From positions 12,104 through 76,103 of the forward strand of contig OY970292.1 in NCBI GenBank assembly GCA_963716145.1: DNA of 64,000 nucleotides. Direction: 5' to 3'. Below the pieces are notes generated by a model. The model did not search any database. It was given only the letters and a program-made list of their open reading frames with translations, and was not told the DNA's origin. Source of the stretch: Candidatus Levyibacteriota bacterium. Its GTDB lineage: Bacteria > Patescibacteriota > Microgenomatia > Levybacterales > UBA12049. Of this stretch, positions 1 to 16,547 are shown piece by piece; position 1 is the stretch's first letter, and the number at the start of each line of letters is the position of its first letter. The position numbers and the translations under genes are program-made.

Positions 1-389
1 CAACAGGATTAATAGCTGCTGCTCTTTACGCGGTGTCTCCACTTGTTATTATTTATTCGCGTTCTTCCTGGAATCCCAATCCTATGCCCTTTATCACGCT
101 ACTTCTTCTGTACAGTCTCTATCGGGCAGTAAATAATAATTCCTGGAAATATTTTTTGGGAGTTGGGTTTTTATACGGGATTGCATTGCAGTTGCACTAT
201 ATTGAACTTTTTGTCGGGGTAATTATTTTTTGCTTTACTCTATTCGGCTTTTTTTATTTTAAAAGAAAAAATATTTTTATTTTAATAAAACAATATTTAG
301 CGCTGCTTAGCGGATTTATAATCGGGTTTTCTCCATTTTTGATGTTTGAGGGGGCGCCACGGTTTTCCCAATACCAGAACAATTGCTAA
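1..389 (+). CDS. GT-C fold membrane glycosyltransferase (ArnT/PMT-like), 5'-truncated by the window edge. It continues in another frame at 346-1197.
   Basis: The ORF is open from base 3 in frame 3 with no upstream stop. Multiple TM helices are typical of the GT39/GT83 family. Frame 3 ends at 389 just after a GGGGG run (353-357). The downstream frame-1 ORF continues the same membrane-protein hydropathy. Confidence 0.5.
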   Translation, partial: TGLIAAALYAVSPLVIIYSRSSWNPNPMPFITLLLLYSLYRAVNNNSWKYFLGVGFLYGIALQLHYIELFVGVIIFCFTLFGFFYFKRKNIFILIKQYLALLSGFIIGFSPFLMFEGAPRFSQYQNNC

Positions 390-1197
390 CTTTGTTCTAC
401 ACGGTGATCCCGGTGCTACTGACCTGACACATAAGTCTTTTGTTCAGATTATCCAGGATGTGTTTTTCCGCGTTTTTGCCCGGACTATGTGGCGTTTCCC
501 GTCTCCAGACTTAATTCCTTTATGGGATAAAAATATATTATTTGCTTTGCAAATATTGATTATTGTTGTTGCCTTTGTATCTATTTTTTATGTACTAAAA
601 ATAAAGAATAAGTTGATTGTCGCGTTCTTAACAATGTGGCTTGGATTTGGAGTAGTATTATTTGGTTTTTATAAAAAACCGATAAATGATTATAATTTTG
701 AATTTTTATTTCCTCTGCCATTTTTGATAACTGCTTATTTTTTGGACAGTCTTTTTAGACAGAAAAAAATTGGAGTTATGGGAAAAGGGATCGCAGTAGG
801 ACTATTCGTCTTTCTTTTTGGATATAACTTGTATTACTTACCTTTTCGTGATCAGCCCAACAGGCAATTAAATCAAATGAAAACTATTTCTGAATTTGTC
901 CTTTCCAAAACTGATGGCAAGCCATTTAATTTCGCGCTTCTGACCGCAGGTAATTCAGATCATGCATATAGATATTTTTTCAGAGTTAAGCACAGAGACC
1001 CTGTCACTTTGGAAAACATGATAAGCGATCCTAAGAGAAAATCGGTAACCGGCCAGCTGCTTATTGTTTGTGAAGATCTCCATTGCGCTCCTCTGGGCAA
1101 TCCGTTATTTGAAGTTGCCGGGTTTGGCAGAGCCGAAATCGCAGGAGAGTGGAATATATCAGTAGTAAGAGTTTACAAACTAGTCCCCTTTAAGTAG
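346..1197 (+). CDS. C-terminal part of the same ArnT/PMT-like glycosyltransferase. It is frame-shifted relative to 1-389.
   Basis: It has TM-rich N-terminal residues and then a soluble C-terminal domain, as in GT-C enzymes. The apparent TTG start at 346 is probably an artefact of a 1-nt indel in the G-run. Confidence 0.5.
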   Translation: MRGRHGFPNTRTIANFVLHGDPGATDLTHKSFVQIIQDVFFRVFARTMWRFPSPDLIPLWDKNILFALQILIIVVAFVSIFYVLKIKNKLIVAFLTMWLGFGVVLFGFYKKPINDYNFEFLFPLPFLITAYFLDSLFRQKKIGVMGKGIAVGLFVFLFGYNLYYLPFRDQPNRQLNQMKTISEFVLSKTDGKPFNFALLTAGNSDHAYRYFFRVKHRDPVTLENMISDPKRKSVTGQLLIVCEDLHCAPLGNPLFEVAGFGRAEIAGEWNISVVRVYKLVPFK

Positions 1198-1215
1198 GAT
1201 TCCCGTAGCTAAAAC

Positions 1216-1243
1216 AAAACCCCCACATAAAGCGGGGGTTTTG
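1216..1243. terminator. Putative bidirectional intrinsic terminator between convergent genes
   Basis: aaaaCCCCCacataaagcGGGGGtttt is a 5-bp GC stem flanked by A-run and T-run on both sides. It sits between the + gene end at 1197 and the - gene end at 1291. Confidence 0.35.
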
Positions 1244-1290
1244 AAAATTTGTTCCTTGAAGATTTTTGAGATTCTTCAAGGAGATTCCAG

Positions 1291-1434
1291 TTATTTTGAA
1301 CCGATTTTGTACATTCCTGTACCACAATCTGGACATTTGGATTTCAAAGCTGGTTTACCATTTTTCATGGTTACCTTTTCAGGATTATCAACTTCCTTTT
1401 TTGCTCTACATTTAACACAATACATGCTTGCCAT
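1291..1434 (-). CDS. Small Cys4 zinc-ribbon protein (DUF5679-like), 47 aa
   Basis: It is not in the ORF track because it is under 60 aa. The minus-strand ORF reads MASMYCVKCRAKKEVDNPEKVTMKNGKPALKSKCPDCGTGMYKIGSK with CxxC...CxxC motifs. A strong GGAGGTGA SD lies 7 nt upstream. Confidence 0.5.
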   Translation of the reverse strand: MASMYCVKCRAKKEVDNPEKVTMKNGKPALKSKCPDCGTGMYKIGSK

Positions 1435-1485
1435 ATATAATCACCTCCTTTCAAAATAAAATAAACAATGGACAGTTAGGTTTTA

Positions 1486-1773
1486 TTAAATGCCTTTGAC
1501 CGTGAATCTAATAACAATTTCTGCAATTATAATCGCGCTGGTAAGCAGTATTGTTCGCCTGAGATCACTTGAGAGATAACTGTAAGAATTAGTTGTAATT
1601 GTTGCTTGGTTGTTGGATTTTGACTTAGCCGCAACTGGATGGGAGATAGAAGAACTTTTCTGACTGGGAAGAGAATAGGTTGCGCTATCAACCTTCTTTA
1701 CTTCTACTGGAGCGACTTTACGCCTTAAATCTGCGAGTATTTTCTGTTTTCGTGTTTTTACCTTCTTAGGCAT
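1486..1773 (-). CDS. Hypothetical protein with a basic N-terminus and a C-terminal TM
   Basis: Six-frame ORF only. No recognisable domain. Confidence 0.3.
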   Translation of the reverse strand: MPKKVKTRKQKILADLRRKVAPVEVKKVDSATYSLPSQKSSSISHPVAAKSKSNNQATITTNSYSYLSSDLRRTILLTSAIIIAEIVIRFTVKGI

Positions 1774-1827
1774 GAGTGAGCCTAGATTACACTATTGACT
1801 TGAGGTATGTCAAGAGGCTAATATTAA

Positions 1828-2295
1828 TTGATGCAATCTCTCCCTGTTATCTTAGCACTCCTAGTTATTATCGTGTGGATGGGGATTCTTACTTTTTATC
1901 TACGGAGAATGGTCCGGAATTATAGCGTATTTACAGAAGGTGTACATAAAAAAACACTTGAGGATGTATTGACTAACATGGTCAAGGAACAGAAAATCAC
2001 AAAAAAGGATATTGCCTTTTTGTCCACACGTTGTGATAATATAGAAAAGGACGGATTATTGCATATCCAAAAAATAGGCCTACTCCGTTTTAATCCATTC
2101 AAAGATACAGGAGGGGATCAGAGTTTCATTCTGTCTTTGATCAATGCTGAAGACACGGGCGTTGTAATTACAGCATTGTACTCAAGATCAGGAACGCGCT
2201 GGTATGCAAAGAGAGTGAATCATGGAAAAGGAGTCGAGCATGAACTGTCTGAGGATGAAAAAAAATCCCTAAAGATGGCAAAGAGCAGTAATTAG
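1828..2295 (+). CDS. DUF4446 family protein
   Basis: N-terminal TM. The conserved LLRFNPFKDTGGDQSF...ALYSRSGTRWYAKRV block is typical of DUF4446. Confidence 0.6.
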   Translation: MMQSLPVILALLVIIVWMGILTFYLRRMVRNYSVFTEGVHKKTLEDVLTNMVKEQKITKKDIAFLSTRCDNIEKDGLLHIQKIGLLRFNPFKDTGGDQSFILSLINAEDTGVVITALYSRSGTRWYAKRVNHGKGVEHELSEDEKKSLKMAKSSN

Positions 2296-2301
2296 CAATC
2301 T

Positions 2302-3465
2302 ATGAATAATAAAATCAAAATTATCGGAGTCTTAGTTTATCTTATCTCAACAGGTATAGGCTATTTTGTTTTTTCAGGTTCTTCAATCGCTCAGAATTCA
2401 TCAGCCCCGGTCCCATCAACAGCAAAGGTAGACAATGATTACGAAGCCTTGACTTTTGATCCCAATGCTTCAAAGACGGAAGAATGCCCAGTTAACGGTG
2501 CGATGTATTCAAAAGATCAAAAAAACTGGTGGGAGAAGCATAGGCCTCTTGGGATTATGATTGAGAATCATTCTGATTCCAGGCCACAATCCGGTATCAA
2601 TGCTGCCGATGTCACCTACGAGGCGGTTGCTGAAGGGGGAATTACTAGGACTTTAAATATTTATTATTGCCAGGACGCTGGAATTGTAGGCCCGGTGCGC
2701 TCTGCAAGAACTTATTTTCTTGATTTTGTTTCAGAGTATGGCGACAATCCACTTTATGCGCACGTTGGAGGCGCGAACACTCCCGGACCTGCTGACGCAT
2801 TGGGACAGATCAATGATTATGGGTGGGGTGGTTATAATGATTTGAATCAGTTCTCAATAGGTTTTCCAACTTACCGACGTGATGAGAGTAGGCTTGGTCG
2901 GAGTGTCGCGACGGAGCATACAATGTACTCTGTTACAACTAAATTGTGGGAAATTGGGGCGAAAAGAAAGCTGACCAATGTTAATGAAGATGGGGAATCG
3001 TGGGACGAGAATTTTGTTAAATATACATTTAAAGATGATGAATCTGAGCCCAAAAGAGGAAATACAAAGTCTATAAATATCGAATTTTGGAATGATCCCA
3101 GTTACTACGTAGATTGGATGTACGATAAAAAGAGCAATACTTACCTTAGAAAAAATGGAGGTACGGAGCACATTGATCGTAATACCAAAAAGCAGCTTTC
3201 GGCTAAAAATCTCGTAATTTTGTATATGGCTGAGAGGCACGCGAATGACGGCTACGAAGGAAACGCGCATCTACTCTACGGCACAAAAGGTTCCGGCAAG
3301 GCCTCAGTATTTATAGATGGAAAGGAAATAAAAGGAAAGTGGAGCAAGAAAGATAGAGAGAGCAGAACAATTTTGACCGATAATAACGGGGATGAGATAG
3401 AATTCAACAGAGGCAAAATTTGGTTTGAGGTCCAAGCCACAGATGGAACAGTTACAGTCAAATAA
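2302..3465 (+). CDS. DUF3048 (YerB-like) domain lipoprotein/secreted protein
   Basis: N-terminal signal/TM. The motifs RPQSGINAADVTYEAVAEGGITRTL and VGPVRSARTYF are characteristic of DUF3048 N/C domains. Confidence 0.65.
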   Translation: MNNKIKIIGVLVYLISTGIGYFVFSGSSIAQNSSAPVPSTAKVDNDYEALTFDPNASKTEECPVNGAMYSKDQKNWWEKHRPLGIMIENHSDSRPQSGINAADVTYEAVAEGGITRTLNIYYCQDAGIVGPVRSARTYFLDFVSEYGDNPLYAHVGGANTPGPADALGQINDYGWGGYNDLNQFSIGFPTYRRDESRLGRSVATEHTMYSVTTKLWEIGAKRKLTNVNEDGESWDENFVKYTFKDDESEPKRGNTKSINIEFWNDPSYYVDWMYDKKSNTYLRKNGGTEHIDRNTKKQLSAKNLVILYMAERHANDGYEGNAHLLYGTKGSGKASVFIDGKEIKGKWSKKDRESRTILTDNNGDEIEFNRGKIWFEVQATDGTVTVK

Positions 3466-3517
3466 ATTCATTGACAAATCCCCATGCTTGCATTATTGTT
3501 ATAGTAGCTAACAATAT

Positions 3518-3763
3518 ATGGACAGAACAAATAAAACCTTTCGTATTAAAAGGAAGCATATAAATCTTTTTTATCTCTTCGCTTTCGCGGTGATGCTTCT
3601 TGTTACTCCCCTGATCATAGTTCAAAACCAACAGCAAACTCAAACTAAATCAAAGGCAGCACCTCCGGAGTGTCCTTATGCGGATGCTCTCCTTTCAGTG
3701 GTTTCGCTGGCCCAGCTGTATCTGATCTTCAGACACGTCTTGAGGCTAAGGGGTACAGCGTAG
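3518..3763 (+). CDS. N-terminal signal-anchor segment (frame 2) of a secreted PG-binding protein. It is frame-shifted into 3670-4350.
   Basis: MDRTNKTFRIKRKHINLFYLFAFAVMLLVTPLIIV is a classic type-II signal anchor. The downstream frame-1 ORF (GTG at 3670) lacks any signal peptide but encodes a secreted-type domain. Confidence 0.35.
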   Translation: MDRTNKTFRIKRKHINLFYLFAFAVMLLVTPLIIVQNQQQTQTKSKAAPPECPYADALLSVVSLAQLYLIFRHVLRLRGTA

Positions 3764-4350
3764 GTGCTCCTGGAGTAGACGGGCAATTCGGCCCGTTAAC
3801 TGAAGGAGCTGTAAGGAATTTCCAGACAGATCAGAATAAAAACGATCCAGCCTTTTTGATAGATGGTATTGTAGGTCCTCAGACTTGGGAAGCTCTTTGT
3901 GGTGTTAATCTTCCAGGTGGTGGAGGTGGAGGGACTGCACCCGGTCCTGGTGGAGGAGTGGACCCTGTAGGAAATGATAGTGCGTGCGTGAGTCCAAATA
4001 AAGGGGGATGGTGCGAAGACACCGGTGGAAAAGGACCGGGTGAGTCCTGCTCTGTCGGTGGTCAACCAGGTACTTATGAGTCAGGATTATGCAACAGTAA
4101 TCCGTCTTCCACATATCTTTGCTGTGCGCCCAATGGATCGGCTGGGGGTGGAGGAGGACAACCACCTCCTCAGCAGGCGCAAGCATGTAAAGATCTAAGC
4201 TTTGATGCTTGTGAAAGCTCCGGGCTAACCTGTCATACGGAATCCGATAATATGGGTGGATATTGCGTAGACGGTGCACCTTATGTTGCACCACCACCTA
4301 GCGACTTGGATGTAAAAGATTGTGCAGCAAGGGCTTCCAGAGTATTGTGA
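3670..4350 (+). CDS. Peptidoglycan-binding (PG_binding_1) domain protein with a Gly/Pro- and Cys-rich region
   Basis: LQTRLEAKGYSVGAPGVDGQFGPLTEGAVRNFQ...DGIVGPQTWEAL is a PG_binding_1 motif. It is followed by GGGGG/PGPGG low-complexity sequence and many Cys. The region is GC-richer than its surroundings. Confidence 0.55.
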   Translation: MSLCGCSPFSGFAGPAVSDLQTRLEAKGYSVGAPGVDGQFGPLTEGAVRNFQTDQNKNDPAFLIDGIVGPQTWEALCGVNLPGGGGGGTAPGPGGGVDPVGNDSACVSPNKGGWCEDTGGKGPGESCSVGGQPGTYESGLCNSNPSSTYLCCAPNGSAGGGGGQPPPQQAQACKDLSFDACESSGLTCHTESDNMGGYCVDGAPYVAPPPSDLDVKDCAARASRVL

Positions 4351-5059
4351 ATCACTAAATCCTGGTAAATGTAAGCTTTCAAATAATGCGTGTAGCATAG
4401 CAAGTGTTGGTCAGAGTGTGGGTATATCTGTTTCGCTTCAGGGTATTGGATTAGGTGCTGGAGAAAATCAAAGTCCGCAGGAACAAATAGTATCTGCGAT
4501 TGTAAAAATTCAGACTAATACAAATGGAGCCATCAAGACTGTTGCTTCGGCAACTGATACTTTAACCTATGATCGTACTACAGGTAAATATGCTAACCCA
4601 AAATTCAACCTCGGTAAAGTTGCCTCCGGCAATTACCAAATGGTTATGCAAGTCGAAACATATATGGATAAGCAGTTATCCACAAAAAATGGAACGAATA
4701 CCTTTGTACTTGGATCGGTAGCTAAAGTTGATGCTGCTCCTGTGCAAATGAGCGCCGGTGATGTGGCCCCATCTCCGCATGGAGACAACTTTGTAAATAT
4801 TATTGACTACAACGCTGTAATCGGTTGTATGCCCGGTTCGCCAGCTGGCGCATGTCTTAATAAGAAATTTGCTGATCTAAATGATGATGGGGCAGTTGAT
4901 CAGAAAGATCTTGACCTACTTCAGTCCAATTTTGGACAATCAGGATTTTCTTTCCAGACGTCTGAGTTTAGTTGTGAACCTGACCCGACCTGTAATGACG
5001 GTAAAGGGGCTCTTCAACTCTGCTCCCTCCTATGCTCCAAAAAAACGCAAAGAAGTTAG
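4322..5059 (+). CDS. Secreted Cys-rich protein with a C-terminal type-I dockerin-like repeat pair. It may be the C-terminal continuation of 3518-4350 after a second frameshift.
   Basis: Ca-binding dockerin loops are DNFVNIIDYNAV and DLNDDGAVDQKD. GTG start at 4322 overlaps the previous ORF end (4350) in another frame. No independent signal peptide. Confidence 0.5.
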   Translation: MQQGLPEYCESLNPGKCKLSNNACSIASVGQSVGISVSLQGIGLGAGENQSPQEQIVSAIVKIQTNTNGAIKTVASATDTLTYDRTTGKYANPKFNLGKVASGNYQMVMQVETYMDKQLSTKNGTNTFVLGSVAKVDAAPVQMSAGDVAPSPHGDNFVNIIDYNAVIGCMPGSPAGACLNKKFADLNDDGAVDQKDLDLLQSNFGQSGFSFQTSEFSCEPDPTCNDGKGALQLCSLLCSKKTQRS

Positions 5060-5062
5060 GAC

Positions 5063-5100
5063 AATTTGAAATTTTCAATTTAAAATTTGAAATGAAATAT
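5063..5100. repeat. Heptamer-periodic AT-rich palindromic repeat (TTTGAAA/TTTTCAA family)
   Basis: The sequence is aatttgaaattttcaatttaaaatttgaaatgaaatat, with 7-nt periodicity. TTTCAAATTTGAAA-type palindromes recur at 5491-5527, 13966-14001, 16418-16464, 16548-16570, 36865-36889 and 59976-60003. Confidence 0.5.
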
Positions 5101-5102
5101 AA

Positions 5103-5465
5103 ATGATTAAAACTTCAAACAAGAAGTATGACTTGGAAGAACGCACTGCTATATTTTCTGAAAAGATAATTGATTTATGCAAAAATGCTCCTAAAACTGT
5201 TATAACAACTCCTATTATTGGTCAGCTAATACGCTCAGGAACAAGTATTGGAGCTAACTACTGCGAAGCAAATGGAGCAAGTAGTAAAAAAGACTTTAAA
5301 AATAAGATATTTATCTGCAAAAAAGAATCAAAAGAAACAAAATACTGGTTAAGGCTACTCGCAAAAGCAGCAGAAGAGTTAAAAGAAGAATGTAGAGAGC
5401 TATGGCAGGAAGCTCAAGAATTTACTTTGATATTTTCTAAAATAGCTACGAATACAGTTACTTAA
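5103..5465 (+). CDS. Four-helix-bundle protein (23S rRNA intervening-sequence protein / Avd family, TIGR02436-like)
   Basis: ERT..FS..II.L......I.TTPIIGQLIRSGTSIGANYCEANGASSKKDF.NKI.IC.KE.KET.YWL.LL matches the family signature. It is 120 aa. Confidence 0.75.
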   Translation: MIKTSNKKYDLEERTAIFSEKIIDLCKNAPKTVITTPIIGQLIRSGTSIGANYCEANGASSKKDFKNKIFICKKESKETKYWLRLLAKAAEELKEECRELWQEAQEFTLIFSKIATNTVT

Positions 5466-5490
5466 TTGAAAATTAAAGCATTTAGTATTC

Positions 5491-5527
5491 ATTGAAAACT
5501 GAAAATTTCAAATTGAAAATTTTATTT
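5491..5527. repeat. Heptamer-periodic palindromic repeat copy
   Basis: The sequence is attgaaaactgaaaatttcaaattgaaaattttattt. With 5063-5100 it flanks the four-helix-bundle gene on both sides. Confidence 0.45.
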
Positions 5528-5543
5528 ACGTCTTTTTGATGGC

Positions 5544-5572
5544 TTGACTGCTAGACCAATTCGGGCTAAAAT
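5544..5572 (+). promoter_or_regulatory. Sigma70-like promoter for the HTH-secDF operon
   Basis: TTGACT-17-TAAAAT lies 17 nt upstream of the ATG at 5590. Confidence 0.35.
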
Positions 5573-5589
5573 GTATAAAAAATTGCTAT

Positions 5590-6165
5590 ATGTTTGAAGA
5601 TCTAATTACATCCAAGTCCCGAGTCAAGCTGTTAGAGCTTTTTCTAGCCTCGCCAGGCGACATGTATCATGTCCGTGAATGCGTAAGAAGAGTTAAAGAA
5701 GAGATTAATGCAGTCCGGCGAGAGCTAATACTTCTTGAAAAAAAAGGAGTTCTCAAAAAAGAACCCCGCGCCAACCGTGTTTATTATTCTCTTTCCAAGG
5801 ATTATCCATTTTATTTTGATCTTTTAAGAATTGGGGCAAAAACCATGGGCTTGGGGCAGGCGATCTTGGCAAACCGCGCAAAATTGGGGAAAATAAAATT
5901 TGCTATGTTGTCTGGTAAATTTGTAAGGCGTATAAAAGAGTCTCCCGAGGATGTTGATTTGTTGGTAGTTGGGACTATTGTGCTTCCTGAGCTGGCGATT
6001 TTGGTCCGCAGCGAAGAAGCTCGGCTTGGCGTTGAAATTAATTACACTGTTATGACTGAGGAGGAATTAAAATTCCGCAAAACACGAAACGATCCGTTTC
6101 TGGGTGCTATTTTATCAGGGTCAAGGATAATGCTTATGGGAGATGAGGAAGGAATGCTGACATGA
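5590..6165 (+). CDS. Winged-helix (ArsR/PadR-like) transcriptional regulator with an uncharacterised C-terminal domain
   Basis: The N-terminal wHTH is SRVKLLELFLASPGDMYHVRECVRRV...LILLEKKGVLKK. It overlaps the secD start and is likely co-transcribed. Confidence 0.45.
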   Translation: MFEDLITSKSRVKLLELFLASPGDMYHVRECVRRVKEEINAVRRELILLEKKGVLKKEPRANRVYYSLSKDYPFYFDLLRIGAKTMGLGQAILANRAKLGKIKFAMLSGKFVRRIKESPEDVDLLVVGTIVLPELAILVRSEEARLGVEINYTVMTEEELKFRKTRNDPFLGAILSGSRIMLMGDEEGMLT

Positions 6166-7523
6166 AGCATCCCCGGCTGCTCATTGTTATTGTATTTTTA
6201 GTTACCGCAATATCAATATTTCTTAATTTGACCCAAAGCTACTCGATAAATATTGGCCCCTACCACACTAAATTTCCAGGCATTAGTCCAAATTTTATTC
6301 CCGGTGTTAAGATTAACCGCAATTTTGATTTTCGAAAAGGACTGGATCTTGAAGGAGGGACAAGTATCACTCTTAAGGCAGACATGAAAGGGGTTCCTGA
6401 GGCACAGCAGAAGAATGCGCTGGATAGTGCAAAATCCGTAATTGAAAAAAGAATTAATCCATCAGGAGTTTCAGAGGCATTGGTGCAGACAGTAAAAGTA
6501 AATAAGGATTATCGGATAATTGTTGAAATCCCGGGTGTTACCGACGTCAAACAGGCCTTGGAGCTGGTTGGAAAAACAGCCAAACTATCTTTTTGGGAAG
6601 AGGATTCTTTAAATAAGAATTCGATAGCAACGGATTCGGCAAAACTGGCGTCAGAATCAGCTGTACCTTTTGGTATAATTCGGGGACTTGGCCCTTCCGC
6701 GAAGAAAACTGACCTTACGGGTGCGGATTTAAAACATGCAAGTGTTTCATTTAATCAAAATAGCGGAAAGCCACAAATAGATCTTGAATTTGATTCAAAA
6801 GGAGCTAAGAAATTTGCCGATATTACCAAGCGAAATGTAGGAAAAAGTGTAGCTATCGCGCTTGATGATCAGGTGATTACTGCTCCCAGTGTTAATGAGC
6901 CTATTTTTGGTGGGAGAGCTCAGATTAGTGGTAATTTTACAACTGCTGAAGCAAATACTCTGCAAAGTCAACTAAATGCGGGAGCGCTTCCCATATCCCT
7001 ATCGGTTTTAGAACAAAAAGCAACCGGCGCTACTCTGGGAGAGGCATCTTTGCAAAAAAGTTTACTCGCCGGAGCTATAGGATTTTTAGTAATTGTTATA
7101 TTTATGATAGTTCTCTACGGCAGGTTAGGGCTTATCGCCAGTCTTGCGTTGGTTGTTTATATGCTGCTTGTTTTATCATTATTCCGTCTTATTCCGGTTA
7201 CTTTGACGCTTGCCGGTATTGCCGGGTTTATACTGTCGATTGGGGTGGCAGTTGATGCTAACATTCTTATATTTGAGCGGATGAAAGAGGAGATGAGGCG
7301 GGGAATATCACATGAAACCGCGATTGATCTTGGTTTTTCAAGAGCATGGCCGTCTATCCGCGATTCAAATGTCTCAAGTCTTATTACCAGCTCAATACTT
7401 TATTATTTCGGAACGACAATTGTCAGGGGATTTGCTTTCACGCTCGCACTTGGTGTTATTGTTTCGATGTTCTCGGCAATTGTTGTGACAAGAACATTTT
7501 TGAGATTACTTTATAAAAATTAA
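6162..7523 (+). CDS. secD: Protein translocase subunit SecD
   Basis: N-terminal TM, a large periplasmic domain (LDLEGGTSITLKAD) and a C-terminal 6-TM bundle. Immediately followed by secF. Confidence 0.85.
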   Translation: MKHPRLLIVIVFLVTAISIFLNLTQSYSINIGPYHTKFPGISPNFIPGVKINRNFDFRKGLDLEGGTSITLKADMKGVPEAQQKNALDSAKSVIEKRINPSGVSEALVQTVKVNKDYRIIVEIPGVTDVKQALELVGKTAKLSFWEEDSLNKNSIATDSAKLASESAVPFGIIRGLGPSAKKTDLTGADLKHASVSFNQNSGKPQIDLEFDSKGAKKFADITKRNVGKSVAIALDDQVITAPSVNEPIFGGRAQISGNFTTAEANTLQSQLNAGALPISLSVLEQKATGATLGEASLQKSLLAGAIGFLVIVIFMIVLYGRLGLIASLALVVYMLLVLSLFRLIPVTLTLAGIAGFILSIGVAVDANILIFERMKEEMRRGISHETAIDLGFSRAWPSIRDSNVSSLITSSILYYFGTTIVRGFAFTLALGVIVSMFSAIVVTRTFLRLLYKN

Positions 7524-7526
7524 ATT

Positions 7527-8435
7527 ATGTTAAATATAATCGGACGGAAAAATATTTACTTTTTAATATCGATTCTGGTAATCATACCCGGAATAATATC
7601 CCTATTTTTATGGGGACTTAGGCTTTCAATTGACTTTACAGGCGGATCACGCACAACTTTTCTTTTTCCCAAAACTGTAAATCAAAAAACAGTTGAAAAA
7701 GTAGAGACTGTTTTTAAACAAGAGAAAACAGAAATTGTATCAGTTAGGCAATCGGATAAAAGATTAATTGTCCAAACAAAGCCATTAGATGAAAAGCAGA
7801 ATAGTACAATTCTAAAAGGTATTAAAAAAAGCGTAGGAACAGTTAAGCAGGAAGAATTTGAAACCATAGGGGCCACAATTGGAGCGGAGACGACACTGAA
7901 CGCCTTTAAAACAATTCTATTCGCGTCTATTTTGATTGTTATCTATATTGCCTATTCTTTCAGGAAAGTACCAAAGCCTGCCAGTAGTTGGAGATTTGGA
8001 GTTTGCGCGATAATCGCCTTGATTCACGATGTACTGGTGGTTGTTGGAATTTTTTCTCTGCTCGGTCACTTTTTGCATGTTGAGGTAGATAGTCTTTTTA
8101 TAACGGCAATTCTTACGGTAATCGGGTTTTCAGTACATGATACTATCGTAGTTTTTGATAGAATACGTGAAAATTTGCGCAAATCTATTGGGGTTTCCTT
8201 TCCTCAGGTTGTGAATGATTCTGTTTTACAGACTTTGGTCCGCTCCTTAAACACGTCTTTAACTGCAATTCTTATGCTTTTGACTCTACTTCTTTTTGGA
8301 GGAGAAAGCGTAAGGTGGTTTGTAGCAGCACTATTAATTGGGATAGTTAGCGGAACATATTCTTCAATCTTTAACGCTGCTCCGTTTTTAGTTGTGTGGC
8401 AGGAATGGGACGAAAAAAGAAGAATTAAGAAGTAA
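7527..8435 (+). CDS. secF: Protein translocase subunit SecF
   Basis: DFTGGSRTTF motif and a C-terminal TM bundle. Adjacent to secD. Confidence 0.85.
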   Translation: MLNIIGRKNIYFLISILVIIPGIISLFLWGLRLSIDFTGGSRTTFLFPKTVNQKTVEKVETVFKQEKTEIVSVRQSDKRLIVQTKPLDEKQNSTILKGIKKSVGTVKQEEFETIGATIGAETTLNAFKTILFASILIVIYIAYSFRKVPKPASSWRFGVCAIIALIHDVLVVVGIFSLLGHFLHVEVDSLFITAILTVIGFSVHDTIVVFDRIRENLRKSIGVSFPQVVNDSVLQTLVRSLNTSLTAILMLLTLLLFGGESVRWFVAALLIGIVSGTYSSIFNAAPFLVVWQEWDEKRRIKK

Positions 8436-8454
8436 GAATCAAGAATTAGGGAAG
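8420..8454. repeat. (AAGAATY)5 heptanucleotide tandem repeat spanning the secF stop codon
   Basis: aagaatt aagaagt aagaatc aagaatt agggaag. Similar arrays occur at 15434-15468 (spanning the aspS stop) and 14005-14029. Confidence 0.45.
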
Positions 8455-8455
8455 A

Positions 8456-8908
8456 TTATTTTACTAGCTCCTCATTAACAATCCTACTGACCGTTCCTCC
8501 GTCTGCTTTGCCTTTTGTCGCCGGCATAAGAGTGCCCATCACTTTTCCCATGTCAGCCGGAGATGAAGCTCCTGTTTGAGATATCGCATCTATAACAAGT
8601 TTCCTTATTTCATCTTCTCCCATTTGCGCCGGTAAATACGCTTCGAGGATTTGAAGTTCTTTTTTCTCTTTATCTACCAATTCTGTGCGTCCCGCTGATT
8701 GAAATTGCTCGACTGAGTCTCTGTGTTGTTTGGCCTCTTTTTGGATTACTGACAAGACATCTTCCTCATTTGCATTGTAGCCAGCGCCGCCTTTTTGTAT
8801 CTCATAGTATCCGATTGCGGAAATCACCATACGCAGAACCGACGTCTTAGCTGAGTCTTTCGCAAGCATCGCTTGTTTTAGTTCATCCTGCAGTTGCTGT
8901 TTGGTCAT
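8456..8908 (-). CDS. GatB/YqeY domain protein
   Basis: MTKQQLQDELKQAMLAKDSAKTSVLRMV...ILEAYLP is the typical YqeY signature. The start was moved to the internal Met at 8908 (150 aa) rather than the ORF-track 8989. Confidence 0.7.
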   Translation of the reverse strand: MTKQQLQDELKQAMLAKDSAKTSVLRMVISAIGYYEIQKGGAGYNANEEDVLSVIQKEAKQHRDSVEQFQSAGRTELVDKEKKELQILEAYLPAQMGEDEIRKLVIDAISQTGASSPADMGKVMGTLMPATKGKADGGTVSRIVNEELVK

Positions 8909-8995
8909 ATGTGTAATTATATCACAACCAAATTCTGCTTTGCAGAACTTGACAGGAAAAATTTCAATAGCTATCATTATTTGAAGCACAATATA

Positions 8996-9397
8996 ATGAA
9001 AAAAATCCTTATTGTAGAAGATGATTTTTTTATAAGAGATGTTTATAGTCGTATTTTTTCAATATCAGGATTTGACGTACAAGTGGCGATTGATGGATTG
9101 GATGGATTAGAAAAGATAAAGGGCTCTCAGGTCTATGACATAATACTTCTTGATGCTATGATGCCCAAGATGTCCGGCATAGAGGTGCTGGGTGCATTAC
9201 GCTCACTGAATACTTCTGTGAAAGATACTCCGGTTTTTATAATTACCAATTTGGGACAACAACAGCTTATTGATGATGCATTTAAATTGGGTATGGACGG
9301 GTATATTATTAAATCCCAAGTAACTCCTCAACAATTGGTAGATGAGATAAATACCTTTCTGAAAGGCAAAGAAACAGAAAAAGCTAACGCACTATAA
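8996..9397 (+). CDS. Stand-alone response-regulator receiver (CheY-like) domain protein
   Basis: MKKILIVEDDFFIRDVY...ILLDAMMPKMSGIEVL...DGYIIK shows the Asp pocket and phospho-acceptor D. The start was set to the ATG at 8996 rather than the TTG at 8894. Confidence 0.75.
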   Translation: MKKILIVEDDFFIRDVYSRIFSISGFDVQVAIDGLDGLEKIKGSQVYDIILLDAMMPKMSGIEVLGALRSLNTSVKDTPVFIITNLGQQQLIDDAFKLGMDGYIIKSQVTPQQLVDEINTFLKGKETEKANAL

Positions 9398-10655
9398 TTG
9401 CTTCCCGCTCAGGTCCTGTTGAAATGTATTTAATACGGACTCCAATTTGCTTTTCTATTTCGGTAACATAATTCTTGGCGTTTTTTGGGAGCTCACTGTA
9501 TTCCTTAAGACCTCTTATCGGACTAAGCCACCCCGGAAGAGTCTTGTAGACTGGTTTTATTTTTCCTAAAAATGCACTATCACCATCATAGTAGTGTACT
9601 TTTTTGCCATTTAATTCATAGCCTGTGCATATTTTAATTTCAGAAAATTTATCCAAAACATCAAGTTTAGTGAACGCGATTTCTGTAAATCCATTTATTT
9701 CTGAAGCAAATCGTAACAGTTCCGCGTCAAACCAGCCGCAGCGCCTGGGGCGCCCCGTTGTAGCACCAAATTCAGCTCCTTCGATCTGTAGTTTTTTACC
9801 GGTTTCATCGAGTAATTCCGTGGGAAAAGGCCCTGCCCCAACGCGTGTAGTGTACGCCTTGGCAATCCCAATTGACTGCTTTATTTTTTGCGCTGAGACA
9901 CCAGCTCCGGCATTTATTCCGCCAGGAAGGACAGTAGACGCGGTTACAAATGGATATGTACCCCAATCATTATCCAGAAAAGTACCCTGGACTCCGACAA
10001 ATAATACTTTTTTATCTTGATTTACTGCATTCTGCAGAATAGGATACAGTTCTTTTATGAAAGGTGCGATTTTTTCGCGCATCGCAAAAAAATCTTTTTC
10101 AATGTCTTTTTGCGAGAGAGCTTTCCCGCCAAAAGACTCAATAATTTTATTTTTGAGAGTAAGCTGAATAGCAAGTTTTTCTGAAAACTGGTTTTTTTCC
10201 AGAAGATCAAAAATCCTGATTCCTTGGTAGCTTACCTTGTCAGCATAAACAGGACCAATTCCCCGTCCGGTTGTGCCTGTTTTTGCTTTGCCTTTTGCGT
10301 CTTCATATAACTTTTCAAGAATTTTATGATAGGGAAGAATCAGATGGCATCTGGGGGAGACGTACAAACGATTTTCCAATGTTAATCCTGCTTTTGACAA
10401 ATCATCAATTTCTTTAAGAAGTACTTCTAAATCAATAACTACCCCGTTTGCGATACAAGCCTTTGAATTTTCTGCAAAAACACCAGAGGGGATTAGGTGA
10501 AGTGGAAATTTTCCGTATTTATTTATGACTGTATTTCCCGCGTTATTTCCTCCATTATAGCGTATGACAAAATCTGAGGATTCGGAAAGAGCATCAATAA
10601 TCTTTCCTTTTCCTTCATCTCCCCATTGCGCGCCATTGACAATAGATATGGGCAT
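9384..10655 (-). CDS. purA: Adenylosuccinate synthetase
   Basis: QWGDEGKGKIID P-loop, GIGPVYADK and TTGRPRRCGWFD motifs. 423 aa. Confidence 0.9.
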   Translation of the reverse strand: MPISIVNGAQWGDEGKGKIIDALSESSDFVIRYNGGNNAGNTVINKYGKFPLHLIPSGVFAENSKACIANGVVIDLEVLLKEIDDLSKAGLTLENRLYVSPRCHLILPYHKILEKLYEDAKGKAKTGTTGRGIGPVYADKVSYQGIRIFDLLEKNQFSEKLAIQLTLKNKIIESFGGKALSQKDIEKDFFAMREKIAPFIKELYPILQNAVNQDKKVLFVGVQGTFLDNDWGTYPFVTASTVLPGGINAGAGVSAQKIKQSIGIAKAYTTRVGAGPFPTELLDETGKKLQIEGAEFGATTGRPRRCGWFDAELLRFASEINGFTEIAFTKLDVLDKFSEIKICTGYELNGKKVHYYDGDSAFLGKIKPVYKTLPGWLSPIRGLKEYSELPKNAKNYVTEIEKQIGVRIKYISTGPEREAIIVR

Positions 10656-10758
10656 TTACAAAGAAAGTTTAACTCAGTTGAGCTTTATTTGCAAGAAGAA
10701 AGTTAAGTGATTATCCTTATTTTCAGGTTTATTATCAATCTGATATACTTAGTTTCAA

Positions 10759-11943
10759 ATGAAAACAAAACTTAAAGAACTAATGTTTTTGCATTTTCTA
10801 AACGATGGGCTTCGTACTACTGTTATTGTTTTGTTGCCTTTTATAGCCAGAGATTTATCATTGTCTCTTGGTCAAGTTGGCTTTCTTGGATCTTCTCAAC
10901 CGTTATTGGCGGCTCTGTTTGCTTTGCCTTCAGGATATATAACGGGAAAGTTTGGCGGATTTAAGATTATCTTTACACTTCTTTTTGTTTACTCGTTGGG
11001 TATTTTGGGCGCAGCTTTTTCCACAAATGAAATTATGCTTTTTGGAATGTATCTTTTTACCGCAATTGGATTCAGTATGTTCCATCCCGTCGGTTTTACC
11101 TTGACAGCAAAAGCATCGGAACAGGATAAGGTGGGACGCAATATGGGAGACTTTACGGCAATAGGAGAAATTGGGCGGGTGGCTCTTCCTCCAATGGCAC
11201 TATTTATTGCAGCTGCTGCGGGATGGAGAATTACTCTCATAATAGCAGCTGTTATAGGTTTTTCAGTTTTTTTTGTTTTTCTCATCAACCTGCTTAAAAA
11301 AAAGGTTAATGACTCGCAAGATCTCACAAGTAAATTACCGACTCGCAGGCAATTTATAAAAGACATTTATTATCTTTTCAAAAATAAAAAAGCATTCTGC
11401 ATTACACTATCTGCTATATTTGATACTGCTGCCAGTAGTCCCCAACAAGTTTTTTTACCCTTCTTGCTTTTAGCCAAAGGTATCAGTCCGGCAAATCTTG
11501 CTATAGCAATGGGATGTTTTTTTGTTGGCAGTTTGCTAGGTAAATCTATTTTAGGACGCGGAGCGGATAGATTTGGAAATATTAAAATTTTCATTTTTTC
11601 AGAGTTTTGCATGGCCGCTACTCTCGTTATGCTGACACAAAGTTTCCCATTCATTTTATTGCTGCTTCTTTGTGGATTCTTAGGCGGATTTACCAAGGGA
11701 ACATCACCCGTTGTCCAGACGATGTTTACGGAGCTATCAGATAAAATCCATTACCACAAAGTGTTTGCTTTTAGTGAATTGGTAATCGCAATCTCAGCGG
11801 TTTTTTCCGTAAATCTTCTTGGTTATTATGCTGACCACACAGGAATTTCGACAGTGTTTTTTGCCGGAGCAGTCCTCGCGATTTGCGCTAGTTTGCCAAT
11901 ATTTATTTTTTCAAAAATAAAAACGGCTCAACACGTTTACTAG
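10759..11943 (+). CDS. MFS transporter
   Basis: About 12 TM helices in a 6+6 arrangement with a central loop, typical of MFS. Confidence 0.65.
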   Translation: MKTKLKELMFLHFLNDGLRTTVIVLLPFIARDLSLSLGQVGFLGSSQPLLAALFALPSGYITGKFGGFKIIFTLLFVYSLGILGAAFSTNEIMLFGMYLFTAIGFSMFHPVGFTLTAKASEQDKVGRNMGDFTAIGEIGRVALPPMALFIAAAAGWRITLIIAAVIGFSVFFVFLINLLKKKVNDSQDLTSKLPTRRQFIKDIYYLFKNKKAFCITLSAIFDTAASSPQQVFLPFLLLAKGISPANLAIAMGCFFVGSLLGKSILGRGADRFGNIKIFIFSEFCMAATLVMLTQSFPFILLLLLCGFLGGFTKGTSPVVQTMFTELSDKIHYHKVFAFSELVIAISAVFSVNLLGYYADHTGISTVFFAGAVLAICASLPIFIFSKIKTAQHVY

Positions 11944-12095
11944 CTATGAGAAAATGGATCCCCCTTGGGGATTGCGTAGAAATAATGGTTAGAACCCCAA
12001 AACTTTTTCTTTTGCTTCTTCTTCATTTTCAACAACCAACGCATTAATGTTGTTGGCTTTAAGTGCCGCGATTGTCGAGTAAGAAGCGCGTAAGG

Positions 12096-13460
12096 TTATA
12101 TAAAAAATGAAATAATAGTCGCGATACCGGTAAAGATCATCACTCCGGTAATAAACCATCCAAGAGTCGCGGTAAGAGGAGAATTAACTCTGTCTTTTAC
12201 CACCTTTTTATTACTGGTCATATGTACTATCAAAAACAATATAACCGGCGCGACCAAACCATTGGCGATAGCAGAATAGATAAGGAGTTTAATAGGGTTG
12301 ATACCAAGAAAATTAATATCCATCGCGATGATCATTGAGAAAATCATTACCCCATAAAATGGCCGGGCCTGATGGAGTTTTCTATATAAACCTGATTTCC
12401 ATTTAAAACTTTCTGCCATTGTATAGGCAGCAGAAGCAGCAAGTACTGGAACAGCCAAAAGCCCCATGCCGATAATTCCGGCTGCAAATAATAGAAATGC
12501 ATATTTTCCGGCAAGCGGTTTTAGTGCCGCCGCCGCATCAGCCGCTGATTCTATGTTGTGCACGCCATTTGAAAAAAGCACCGCGGCGCAAGTCGCAATT
12601 ATAGAATACATTACGAGATTTGACACAAACATTCCTGTCCAAACATCAACTCTCATTTTTTTCACCTCTTTATCAGTGGTTCCTTGTCTCAACCTTATCG
12701 AAGTTTTGCCATGAAGTACTTCTTCCTCAACCTCGTGAGAAGTTTGCCAGAAGAAAAGGTAAGGTGAAATAGTGGTACCCAAAATAGCAGTTATTAGGAA
12801 GAGTTGATCTTTTGAAAATGTGATTGAAGGAACAAAAGTGTGAAAAATCAACTGACCAGCGTTTAATTTTACGATGAAAGCGGTTACTACATAAGAAGCA
12901 AGTACCAACACGAGGTATTTTAAGTATTTTACATATCTTTCATAGGGGGTGAAGATCTGTAAGAATAAGCAAAAGAATGTAAATCCGGCAACAAGGACGG
13001 CAAAATTTAGATCAGGGGACAAAAGTTGAGCAGCTTTACTCATAGCTCCTATATCGGCTGCTATGTTAAGTGTATTGGCTGTGAAAAGCAGAATCGCGCA
13101 GGAGTAGAGAACCCATCTCGGATAATTGATACGTATATTTCCTGCTAGGCCCCGACCTGTTGTCAGTCCAATTCTTGCACACATTTCCTGAACTACTGCC
13201 ATAAGAGGTAGTGTAAAAATAGATAGCCATAGAAGCTGATAGCCGTATTTCGCGCCGACTTGTGAGTATGTGGCAATTCCGGAAGGGTCATCATCAGCGG
13301 CTCCTGTTATGAGTCCCGGGCCCAGATTGGCCCAGAAACCTCGTGCTTTTTTCATACGGGTGATAGAAACGGTTTCTTTCCCGAACTTTCTTGTAGCTTC
13401 TATACCTTTTTCCAGTGCAATTGATGGGGCAGCAGCGAGTTCTTCAAATTTCTTGTCCAT
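12096..13460 (-). CDS. mntH: NRAMP-family divalent metal (Mn2+/Fe2+) transporter
   Basis: GPGLITGAADDDPSGIATYSQ is the Nramp signature. 11-12 TM helices. Confidence 0.8.
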   Translation of the reverse strand: MDKKFEELAAAPSIALEKGIEATRKFGKETVSITRMKKARGFWANLGPGLITGAADDDPSGIATYSQVGAKYGYQLLWLSIFTLPLMAVVQEMCARIGLTTGRGLAGNIRINYPRWVLYSCAILLFTANTLNIAADIGAMSKAAQLLSPDLNFAVLVAGFTFFCLFLQIFTPYERYVKYLKYLVLVLASYVVTAFIVKLNAGQLIFHTFVPSITFSKDQLFLITAILGTTISPYLFFWQTSHEVEEEVLHGKTSIRLRQGTTDKEVKKMRVDVWTGMFVSNLVMYSIIATCAAVLFSNGVHNIESAADAAAALKPLAGKYAFLLFAAGIIGMGLLAVPVLAASAAYTMAESFKWKSGLYRKLHQARPFYGVMIFSMIIAMDINFLGINPIKLLIYSAIANGLVAPVILFLIVHMTSNKKVVKDRVNSPLTATLGWFITGVMIFTGIATIISFFI

Positions 13461-13866: not shown

Positions 13867-13965
13867 AAATATAAATAAACTTCCGAAAATAAGAAGTCTT
13901 ATAGTACTTTACCATAATTTAATCTTCTTGTCAAGTTATGTGGGTAAATGGTATGATACAGACGT

Positions 13966-14001
13966 AATTTTCAATTTGAAATTTGAAATTTTCAATGAAT
14001 C
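13966..14001. repeat. Heptamer-periodic palindromic repeat in the aspS 5' leader
   Basis: The sequence is aattttcaatttgaaatttgaaattttcaatgaatc. It is preceded by TTGTCA-N18-TATGAT promoter-like boxes at about 13928-13957. Confidence 0.45.
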
Positions 14002-14029
14002 TTAAAGTTAAATCAAGAATTAAAATATT

Positions 14030-15448: not shown

Positions 15449-16430
15449 AGAATTAAGAATTAAGGAGAAAAAAACCTTACCTCTTAATTCTAACGTCTTG
15501 CTTCTAAGAAAACACGAATCAAATTTAATATTTATCCTTATTCCTCTAATTCTGCTGATTATACTTTATGCAGTATATTTATTTAATTCGAGTGTTTCCC
15601 TGAGTATTCAAAAAAACAAACTTATTGCATCAACTGATACGGCTTTTACGCCTTATCCTATTGTCCTGAATTCATATCAACCGATTTTGTCTTCAAAAGC
15701 TGCAATTGTAACCGACGCTGACTCCCAGACAATTCTTTTTTCCAAGAATCCTGCTTTGCGGTTTTCAATGGCATCAACCGCCAAGATCATGACCGCATTA
15801 ACGGCACTTGATTATTATCAACCTGATTCGATTATTACTATAAAATCAGGTTTTGTGGAGGGATCAGGTCTCAATTTGCAAGTCGGGGATAGATTTTATT
15901 TTCCGGATCTTCTTTACGCCATGCTTCTTCCCTCAGCCAATGATGCAGCAGCAGCAATTGCGGACAATTATCCGGGAGGGAAAGAAGAATTTGTCGCAAA
16001 AATGAATGAAAAGGCGCAAGTCTTACATCTTACAGATACGCATTTCTCAGATCCTGTGGGAATTGATGACGATGGAAACTACTCAACAGTTGTTGATTTG
16101 GCGAGACTTTCGTCCTCCGCAATGAAAAATAAGATATTCGCACAGATTGTCGCGACCAAGCAAAAAACTATAAATAATGTTGACAGCGCTCATCCTTATA
16201 TTCTTTTTAATCTTAATAAGCTTTTGGGTATTCAGGGAGTAAATGGTATAAAAACAGGAACTACAGAAGGCGCCGGAGAGGTTCTTGTCACCTCAGCAAT
16301 TGTGAATAATCATACTTTTATAATTGTGGTGATGAATAGTCAGGATAGGTTTGGAGATACTAGTCTGCTTCTTGATTTCATTGCTAACAATATAGAGTTT
16401 GTTAATCCCCCATCGCTTGAAAATTTTTAA
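15357..16430 (+). CDS. dacA: D-alanyl-D-alanine carboxypeptidase (S11, PBP5-like serine hydrolase). The true start is probably downstream of 15357.
   Basis: SxxK (ASTAK), SxN (PSANDAA) and KTG (IKTGTT) motifs. N-terminal TM anchor. The ORF-track start overlaps aspS by 92 nt, so the start is uncertain. Confidence 0.65.
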   Translation: MMKDSQNQQKKTLRLAQGKRRFFKRARIKNKELRIKEKKTLPLNSNVLLLRKHESNLIFILIPLILLIILYAVYLFNSSVSLSIQKNKLIASTDTAFTPYPIVLNSYQPILSSKAAIVTDADSQTILFSKNPALRFSMASTAKIMTALTALDYYQPDSIITIKSGFVEGSGLNLQVGDRFYFPDLLYAMLLPSANDAAAAIADNYPGGKEEFVAKMNEKAQVLHLTDTHFSDPVGIDDDGNYSTVVDLARLSSSAMKNKIFAQIVATKQKTINNVDSAHPYILFNLNKLLGIQGVNGIKTGTTEGAGEVLVTSAIVNNHTFIIVVMNSQDRFGDTSLLLDFIANNIEFVNPPSLENF

Positions 16431-16464
16431 TTTTCAGTTCTCAATTTTCATTGAATTTTCAATG
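16418..16464. repeat. Heptamer-periodic AT-rich repeat array at a convergent gene junction
   Basis: The sequence is gaaaatttttaattttcagttctcaattttcattgaattttcaatg. It overlaps the dacA stop. Confidence 0.4.
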
Positions 16465-16510
16465 ACTAAATGTTTAAAAATTAAAACATTGTGATTTGAT
16501 TGAAAATTGT

Positions 16511-16547
16511 CCATTCGACAAGCTCAGGATCCTGAGTGTATCGAAGG
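16511..16547. repeat. Nested-hairpin repeat element (TTCGA-CTCAG-loop-CTGAG-TCGAA family), intergenic copy
   Basis: In ccaTTCGAcaagCTCAGgatcCTGAGtgtaTCGAAgg the inner and outer stems are perfect inverted repeats. It is homologous to the purU and DUF1801 leader elements. Its first 19 nt recur at 61185-61203. Confidence 0.5.

Follow-up and report, generated by a model that had tools for sequence, protein, structure and literature searches.

We analysed a stretch of 64,000 nucleotides from Candidatus Levyibacteriota bacterium (GenBank assembly GCA_963716145.1, contig OY970292.1, positions 12,104 to 76,103; hereafter the window), in which the gene of a Cys-rich surface protein with a dockerin module is directly followed by the gene of a 120-aa four-helix-bundle protein. 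The original prediction took the two for a gene pair like that of a diversity-generating retroelement (DGR), a target followed by an Avd-type protein. This is not supported by our results: the small protein is an S23p-type member of its superfamily, reverse transcriptase (RT) and repeat pair are absent from the window, and the adjacency is not conserved. With a probability of about 0.7 the two genes are instead unrelated neighbours, one a lineage-specific surface-protein gene that carries two 1-nt indels in the window, the other part of a cassette of the intervening-sequence (IVS) type, placed in the spacer of ~62 nt downstream. The coordinates of all features are collected in Table 1.

Insertion of the cassette and complementarity of its arms

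Two sets of loci were compared with the window. Eighty genome loci, spanning Microgenomates through Parcubacteria lineages, were fetched via homologues of the four-helix-bundle protein (62-85% identical), with 79 entering the flank statistics and 73 the orientation statistics, and 80 metagenome loci were fetched via the 191-aa helix-turn-helix (HTH) protein encoded downstream of the cassette. The orthologous loci total 86, eight of which hold the dockerin gene (L082, L083 and L164-L169). The gene order conserved in the HTH loci is DUF4446-DUF3048-HTH-secD-secF, sometimes with the dockerin gene between DUF3048 and HTH, and DUF3048 directly adjoins HTH in about 70 of the 80. The four-helix-bundle gene was found in none of the 80 HTH loci and in none of the 86 orthologous loci, the eight with a dockerin gene included. 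In these eight the dockerin gene occupies the same slot as one intact open reading frame (ORF), followed by a spacer of 61-64 nt and the HTH gene. The host spacer is laid out as a stop codon, about 15 nt, a conserved TTG...TAAAAT promoter-like element and the ATG, and the additional ~462 bp of the window fall between the dockerin stop codon and this promoter-like element. The cassette is an insertion at the window locus. Since relatives with the dockerin gene have empty-site spacers, the supposed pair of dockerin and four-helix-bundle genes is a lineage-specific juxtaposition, and the coincidental adjacency that the original prediction had listed among its alternatives gains support. No intrinsic terminator was found between the dockerin gene and the cassette.

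The inserted segment begins and ends with tandem arrays whose unit is a heptamer; a regular expression assuming octamers matched nothing. The two arms are inverted repeats of each other, with complementarity of 88% over 25 nt (5062-5086 with 5491-5515) and of 95% over 20 nt (5069-5088 with 5503-5522), and the palindromic repeats previously reported around the gene are therefore real. The flank-complementarity score of the cassette ORF is 17, the highest among the 73 ORFs of the window (next 10), and in the predicted minimum-free-energy fold of 5055-5530 the segment 5062-5077 pairs with 5500-5515, enclosing the whole ORF.

The same arrangement was found in most of the 79 loci, where three to five tandem heptamers (AATTTNN) stand directly 5′ of the ATG and end in CAAT(G/C)AAT, and their reverse complement stands 3′ of the stop codon; in copies of the Microgenomates type TTTAAAAT recurs 20-25 nt upstream of the ATG. 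The arrays are concentrated at the ORF: over 728 kb, 46 of the forward pattern lie in the 100 nt upstream and 58 of the reverse pattern in the 100 nt downstream, with at most five per 100-nt bin elsewhere. Across the 79 four-helix-bundle ORFs the median flank-complementarity score is 17, compared to 7 for 1,220 other ORFs (99th percentile 17.8). The repeats, the predicted fold and the recurrence in these loci and in paralogues all point to a stem of inverted repeats with the ORF in its loop, as in an IVS.

Covariation of the arms could not be read from an alignment, the arms being of low complexity and variable in unit number, and it was replaced by scoring of own against foreign partners and by comparison across lineages. 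Arms score higher with their own partner than with a foreign one (mean 16.7 against 13.1, p 9e-10). Divergent TIGR02436 paralogues and small ORFs of the GxxExxY type in the same loci are flanked by unrelated heptamers (CATGAAN, AAATCAC, GTTAACG, TACGAAT), and here too the two arms are reverse complements of each other. By these sequence comparisons it is the pairing of the arms that is conserved, not their sequence.

The genomic surroundings of the cassette are variable. Clustering of flanking ORFs gave no neighbour family in more than 8 of the 79 loci, and no transposase, integrase or family of the RAYT type (transposases associated with repetitive extragenic palindromes) recurs near the 79 cassettes. 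Of the 73 loci scored for orientation, 71 have the upstream neighbour on the same strand as the cassette and 64 have both neighbours on it (base rate 0.82; p 8e-5 and 6e-5), with median gaps of 57 and 70 nt to the neighbouring genes. Some genomes hold multiple copies (L068/L071/L072, L016/L019), and tandem pairs occur in L043, L051, L067 and L081. Searches with Rfam found no rRNA in the window, which has only two tRNAs, and none in 13 homologous loci with ORF-poor flanks, and none of the copies in these 13 loci is therefore a classical IVS. Taken together, the layout of an ORF between inverted heptamer arrays recurs in unrelated Patescibacteria contexts, with arms that are complementary even when their sequence is wholly different. 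In the literature searched, inverted heptamer arms around a TIGR02436 gene are nowhere described outside rRNA.

Heptamer arrays are also seen at other places in the window. An ORF-less arm pair at 16419-16568 consists of a forward array (16420-16465), an ATG with a remnant of 10 codons, and a reverse array broken by the G+C-rich palindrome TCCATTCGACAAGCTCAGGATCCTGAGTGTATCGAAGGA; it is similar to the cassette (5063-5524) at both ends and appears to have arisen from it by deletion. Further AATTTNN arrays lie at 13964-14006, just upstream of aspS, at 36035-36065, at 36859-36899 and at 59975-60036, the last of these in the 30-nt spacer before an ORF at 60006. Two of these arrays are within coding sequence, one in RecJ ('ISNIQLQIPN') and one in the CCA-adding enzyme ('KISNFKFQISN'), where it seems to have been inserted in frame into the PolyA_pol head domain. 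A second dispersed repeat of ~25-28 nt, CCATTCGACAAGCTCAGGAC and its complement, occurs at 15390-15414, 16510-16534, 35412-35439, 61182-61209 and 61573-61597, and some of its copies are translated as protein tails (…TLRLAQGK…, …HPFDKLRTRKHK, …PSAHSGQES…).

The four-helix-bundle protein and the absence of a retroelement from the window

The 120-aa protein matches the models PF05635 (23S_rRNA_IVP; E 1.1e-15, 58.2 bits at a curated cutoff of 33.8) and TIGR02436 (E 6.7e-21, 74.6 bits at a cutoff of 24), confirming the family first proposed for it. The relationship to Avd that was proposed along with the family did not survive comparison of hidden Markov models. NF033474 (DivGenRetAVD), the Avd equivalog with a curated cutoff of 80 bits, does not match the protein even at E<=1, yet it catches the Avd of Bordetella phage BPP-1 (5.7e-31) and that of L048, a locus with a real Patescibacteria DGR (4.2e-13, 49.5 bits, under the 80-bit cutoff). 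TIGR02436, in turn, matches neither of these two control Avds. A profile of the clade, built from 37 Patescibacteria sequences, aligned in hhalign with a probability of 2.4% to the BPP-1 Avd and of 0.1% to the L048 Avd, and when it was searched against the PDB its sole match was 2RLD (7.9e-21; phmmer E 8.9e-14, 33% identity). This entry, BT_0352 of Bacteroides thetaiotaomicron, is itself a TIGR02436 'four helix bundle protein' and the closest solved relative.

Structure prediction, made on homologues, gave an AlphaFold2 model with a predicted local distance difference test (pLDDT) value of 91.6 and helices at residues 11-28, 35-57, 62-89 and 91-117, a predicted up-down four-helix bundle like 2RLD and 2GSC. 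Foldseek ranked 2RLD first (E 2.3e-5, template-modelling (TM) scores 0.77/0.85), then 2GSC (8e-3), and the Avd structures 8UB7 and 4DWL at ~0.2 with 12-13% identity and TM scores of 0.62-0.71 to the model. The fold is thus common to Avd and the whole superfamily, and the membership of the 120-aa protein is in the S23p/IVS-protein family, not with Avd.

The protein is basic (isoelectric point 9.0) and has 23 residues that are invariant across the 37 Patescibacteria sequences. Identity at the three codon positions is 0.73/0.79/0.45, and the ratio of nonsynonymous to synonymous divergence is ~0.11 in the 16 pairs with computable synonymous divergence; judged from these substitution patterns, the four-helix-bundle ORF is under strong purifying selection. 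Relatives are abundant in Patescibacteria, with 8,000 scored matches at E<=1e-5 and 8,091 representatives in a library clustered at 50% identity at E<=1e-3. The best 120 relatives are 74-90% identical, and the named ones among them are called Levy-, Curtiss-, Davies- and Woesebacteria. The viral contigs of IMG/VR yielded no close relative, leaving a phage vector unsupported, and PHROGs and PADLOC returned zero matches for the protein.

RT, template and variable repeats (TR and VR) and other repeats were searched for across the whole 64-kb window. The motif pair LGxxxSQ/YxDD of RTs was found in none of the six frames, the ten unassigned ORFs of 274-765 aa have no RVT/RT Pfam domain, and tblastn with Brt of Bordetella phage BPP-1 reached at best E 2.9; the same query finds the RTs of L048 (4.9e-33) and L110 (1.4e-25). 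By blastn with word size 7, no second copy of any part of 3518-5100 exists in the window or in its self-comparison, the only match being the A/T heptamer repeat at the 3′ edge, and a window-wide repeat search was likewise without a TR/VR pair, whereas the pair of the L048 control (180 nt, 89% identical) serves as the positive example. The original prediction had already stated that RT and a template copy were lacking here, and both statements hold. The C-terminal part of the surface protein, where a variable region, usually within a C-type-lectin or Ig-like fold, would be expected of a DGR target, consists of the dockerin module and a conserved Cys motif, and no DGR-target features were seen in the upstream gene for which this role had been proposed. 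With neither an RT, a TR/VR pair, an Avd equivalog nor a variable target found, DGR identity was rejected for the window.

A DGR-type RT lies near the four-helix-bundle gene in one of the 80 loci, L048, whose DGR has an Avd of its own. The complete Patescibacteria DGR at 71-4601 of this locus comprises a target with a C-terminal VR (496-675), Avd (from 1653), a TR (2165-2344) and, within the same long ORF, an RT. A 299-aa ORF is inserted after the VR, followed by a heptamer arm (1586-1642), and further downstream come an ORF resembling RhuM and, as a separate unit, a four-helix-bundle cassette (4179-4535) together with its arms; the arms at 4545-4601 and 1586-1642 are 95% identical.

The surface-protein gene and its neighbourhood

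The surface-protein gene is represented in the window by three overlapping ORFs: 3518-3763 (frame 2) with the N-terminal hydrophobic segment, an anchor or signal; 3670-4350 (frame 1) with PG_binding_1 (Pfam, E 8e-14); and 4322-5059 (frame 2) with Dockerin_1 (E 3.4e-7). A 14.9-kb contig of a second assembly (L001), obtained by exact-protein look-up, differs from positions 1-13316 of the window at only 4 positions in 13,316 nt, all of them inside this gene. It fuses the first three pieces of the gene into an ORF of 425 aa and then breaks at 4767. A chimera of both assemblies yields an intact ORF of 513 aa with 22 Cys and 65 Gly, which over residues 56-513 is colinear (E 4e-76) with P0151, a single-ORF homologue carrying both PG_binding_1 and dockerin. 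The dockerin-gene orthologues are likewise single ORFs of 315-337 aa, 669 aa and at least 589 aa. The secreted, Cys-rich protein with PG-binding and dockerin domains that was originally described thus stands as to its domains, its anchor or signal and, in the reconstruction, its 22 Cys, but not as one gene in the window.

The chance of three independent events all falling in this 1.5-kb gene is ~1.6e-3, and the differences reflect either population heterogeneity in the surface protein or consensus error. Other genes of the window are also split in two ORFs, namely those of Lon protease (40986-43356; substrate-binding domain apart from AAA+ and protease domains), a Na/H exchanger (48023-49716; at profile position ~217) and a PMT_2-type glycosyltransferase (33-1197). 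The last is split in L001 too, and its L167 orthologue is one ORF of 512 aa. These split genes suggest frequent indel errors or pseudogenes in the genome, and because Lon and the Na/H exchanger are affected as well, indel error and real heterogeneity are inseparable from the assemblies alone. The differences between the assemblies are homopolymer indels, unlike the adenine-specific substitutions of a DGR.

Homologues of the dockerin module are scarce (31 clusters), and the C-terminal Cys motif is kept in the window, L082, L083 and P0151 and is not hypervariable. The gene at 3518-5059 is a lineage-specific cell-surface gene in the variable slot between DUF3048 and HTH-secDF, in a subclade of Microgenomates-type Patescibacteria. 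A second dockerin protein of the window (38522-40819) is secreted, 765 aa long and has a Big_7 Ig domain with a C-terminal Dockerin_1; dockerin-tagged surface proteins are a recurrent theme of this genome.

The spacer between DUF3048 and HTH is an insertion hot spot, taken by the dockerin gene in L082 and L083, by a hydrolase of the haloacid dehalogenase (HAD) type in L091 and L102 and by antisense ORFs in L085 and L143. The same slot of L110 (1-1365) holds a DGR-type RT and then an XRE-type HTH gene with a 110-aa ORF. The 191-aa winged-helix ORF itself overlaps the start of secD and matches the candidate-defence model PDC-M05A of PADLOC (E 1.4e-32). A housekeeping rather than a defence role is indicated, because the gene invariably accompanies secDF in those of the 80 relatives whose contigs extend far enough.

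Table 1. Features at the junction of the surface-protein gene, the cassette and the HTH-secD-secF unit (positions in the window).
Feature	Position	Strand	Evidence
Putative promoter-like site TTGACA-17-TATTGT, ahead of the surface-protein gene	3471-3499	+	Consensus scan only
Surface-protein gene	3518-5059	+	N-terminal membrane anchor/signal, PG_binding_1, Gly/Cys-rich linker, conserved C-terminal dockerin module, terminal Cys motif
First frame break in the window, G2 (G3 in L001), and T/C difference at 3704	3699-3704	+	Pairwise alignment of window and L001
Second frame break in the window, T2 (T1 in L001)	4335	+	Pairwise alignment of window and L001
Frame break of L001 (C3); window C4, in frame	4767	+	Pairwise alignment of window and L001
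Whole inserted cassette (left arm, ORF, right arm), ~462 bp	~5063-5524, boundaries +/- few bases	+	Empty sites in L082, L083, L164, L165, L167
Left arm: AATTTGA AATTTTC AATTTAA AATTTGA, then AATGAAAT; ends 3 nt before ATG	5063-5099	+	Sequence, inverted repeats, regular-expression array at 5063
120-aa four-helix-bundle protein, TIGR02436/PF05635, S23p/'IVS protein' family	5103-5465	+	Hidden Markov models, AlphaFold2, Foldseek, conservation
Right arm: ATTCATTGAAAAC TGAAAAT TTCAAAT TGAAAATT; reverse complement of left-arm array	5484-5524	+	Sequence, inverted repeats, regular expression
Promoter-like site TTGACT-17-TAAAAT of the downstream HTH gene; host sequence, kept in empty sites	5544-5572	+	Consensus scan, aligned spacers
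191-aa winged-helix protein, first gene of the HTH-secD-secF unit; host, outside the cassette	5590-6165	+	Immediately before secD in every one of the 80 loci that is long enough

Known elements, competing explanations and implications

The closest architectural counterpart is the IVS of Coxiella, which has 428 nt, an S23p ORF in its loop, a stem of inverted repeats and GACAGAT tandem heptamers immediately before the ATG (PMC4990558). RNase III cuts it out, and for the IVSs of Coxiella, Salmonella and Leptospira this excision is known to proceed without re-ligation; the Coxiella ORF is reported to be decaying and probably untranslated (PMC4990558). ORFs of the 23S_rRNA_IVP family are present in rRNA insertions of the Candidate Phyla Radiation, i.e. 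Patescibacteria (10.1101/2024.02.27.582315). The cassette resembles the 23S IVSs of Coxiella (helix 45) and Leptospira in its size (~462 bp against 428 nt), in one PF05635 ORF of ~120 aa in the loop that is sense to the host transcript, in the flanking inverted-repeat stem with heptamers directly before the start codon, and in a sporadic distribution with empty sites. It differs in its location, which is between protein-coding genes and not in an rRNA helix, and in that its ORF is under strong purifying selection while that of Coxiella is reported to decay. The cassette architecture across Patescibacteria looks like a variation on the known IVS architecture, and the suggestion of an IVS-type element outside rRNA, flanked by palindromic repeats, is a part of the original prediction that insertion and inverted arms bear out. 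With Avd (Bbp7 of Bordetella phage BPP-1; 4DWL, 8UB7) the protein shares fold, similar size and basic character, and the two are distant members of one superfamily; it differs in the low identity, the failure of NF033474 to match it and the low hhalign probability given above, in the lack of RT, TR and VR in the window and of conserved neighbours, and in that a genuine Avd and a cassette copy coexist as separate genes in L048. Like integron attC sites, repetitive extragenic palindromes (REP) and bacterial interspersed mosaic elements (BIME), and miniature inverted-repeat transposable elements (MITEs), the cassette is defined by imperfect inverted complementarity and not by a fixed sequence, and ORF-less versions exist (16419-16568). 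Unlike in these elements, the arms bracket the ORF instead of adjoining each other, are built of tandem heptamers and have no integrase or RAYT associated.

By analogy with the Coxiella and Leptospira 23S rRNA IVSs, one may envisage joint transcription of the cassette with its host operon, in which case the two arms would form a long double-stranded stem that encloses the ORF. This stem would then be cut by RNase III, which would free the cassette RNA and separate it from the host message, and such a release could make an insertion between co-transcribed genes tolerable. We infer RNase III excision of the cassette RNA from this parallel with the rRNA elements. Our best guess for the protein is an oligomer that binds nucleic acid and works for the maintenance or spread of the element itself.

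Several observations weigh against an IVS-type cassette as described here. The arms are low-complexity A/T sequence, arm scores with foreign partners are also high (mean 13.1), and the score of 17 in the window is close to the 99th percentile of other ORFs (17.8). Similar arrays without a four-helix-bundle gene are found at 13966, 16420-16570, 36035, 36863 and 59975, which means that the heptamer repeat is not exclusive to the cassette. The case for mobility consists of varied contexts and empty sites; comparison of the junctions with the empty sites, which are too diverged for base-level precision, showed no target-site duplication, synonymous sites are saturated among the homologues, and recent transfer has left no sign. 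Finally, an RNA structure of the sense strand should have its mismatches tolerated there as G:U pairs, but for 51 of 78 loci the duplex of the antisense strand came out as more stable, lending no support to the RNA model. Since a G:U bias on the sense strand is lacking, the arms could act as DNA, and an explanation at the DNA level is a serious rival.

According to this rival, the cassette would be a mobile DNA element, i.e. a passenger-carrying MITE or small transposon whose arms are terminal inverted repeats or single-stranded DNA hairpins used by a recombinase in trans, with no RNA processing. Varying contexts, empty sites and several copies in some genomes agree with it, as do the missing G:U bias and the ORF-less arm pair, which keeps the ATG and two codons of the cassette, and the arm sequence varies by cassette lineage as terminal inverted repeats vary by transposon family. 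Such an element would however not be expected to show strong co-orientation with the flanking genes, arms with tandem heptamers in variable number do not resemble the terminal inverted repeats known so far, the saturation at synonymous sites speaks against recent transposition bursts, and neither a target-site duplication nor a recurring transposase or integrase was seen; we regard it as rather unlikely. More improbable still is that the arrays belong to an ordinary autoregulated host gene, for which they would act in expression or as protein-binding sites, with an operator or promoter upstream and a matching site downstream, possibly bound by the four-helix-bundle protein itself. A promoter-like AGGACA-17-TAAAAT inside the left arm, the recurrence of TTTAAAAT before the ATG in Microgenomates-type copies, the basic and strongly conserved protein and the presence of arrays upstream of other genes (e.g. 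aspS, at 13966) could be read in this way, but the paralogues have wholly different heptamers and still reverse-complementary arms, which indicates pairing and not a shared motif; furthermore, the copy in the window is clearly inserted relative to 86 orthologous loci, and a period of 7 nt mismatches the helical repeat of DNA. The least probable explanation, with hardly any weight left to it, is a degenerate or split DGR in which the dockerin protein is or was the target and the four-helix-bundle protein its Avd, RT and TR being lost or elsewhere in the genome. PF05635 and Avd are distant homologues with a shared fold (PMC10053308), Patescibacteria do carry DGRs (complete in L048), and in L110 the same variable slot contains an RT of the DGR type (IGNLTSQ...YADDF), 740 nt 5′ of the HTH orthologue. 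The window, on the other hand, is missing RT and TR/VR, and the Avd equivalog model fails on the protein yet matches true Avds. In addition, 79 of the 80 close-homologue loci are without RT and the one DGR-adjacent copy adjoins a separate, genuine Avd, the four-helix-bundle gene is missing from all 86 orthologous loci, beside the dockerin gene as well as elsewhere in the slot, the orthologues of the dockerin protein share a conserved and not a hypervariable C-terminus, and the assemblies differ by homopolymer indels and not by A-to-N substitutions.

The preferred explanation of two unrelated neighbours has a bearing on annotation. This locus should not count as a DGR, and PF05635 matches without an RT are poor DGR markers in Patescibacteria. 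'S23p / 23S rRNA IVS protein' is among the commoner hypothetical-protein annotations in Patescibacteria genomes, and the function of the family has been enigmatic since the 1990s. One may tentatively go further and propose, as a possibility that we consider less than even, that IVS elements are not rRNA-specific but widespread cassettes within Patescibacteria transcripts, defined by structure and excised by RNase III, in which the four-helix-bundle protein would be a nucleic-acid-binding factor for maintenance or mobility, much as Avd serves the RT of a DGR. The class proposed as part of this same tentative reading would comprise inverted tandem heptamers of any sequence around one ORF, either TIGR02436 or a GxxExxY protein resembling PD-(D/E)XK enzymes, co-oriented between ordinary operon genes. 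The observations suggest that rRNA IVSs are one niche of a broader element family, and the layout of an ORF in a putative stem with heptamers, between ordinary genes, in operon orientation and under purifying selection, makes concrete experiments on the S23p family possible.

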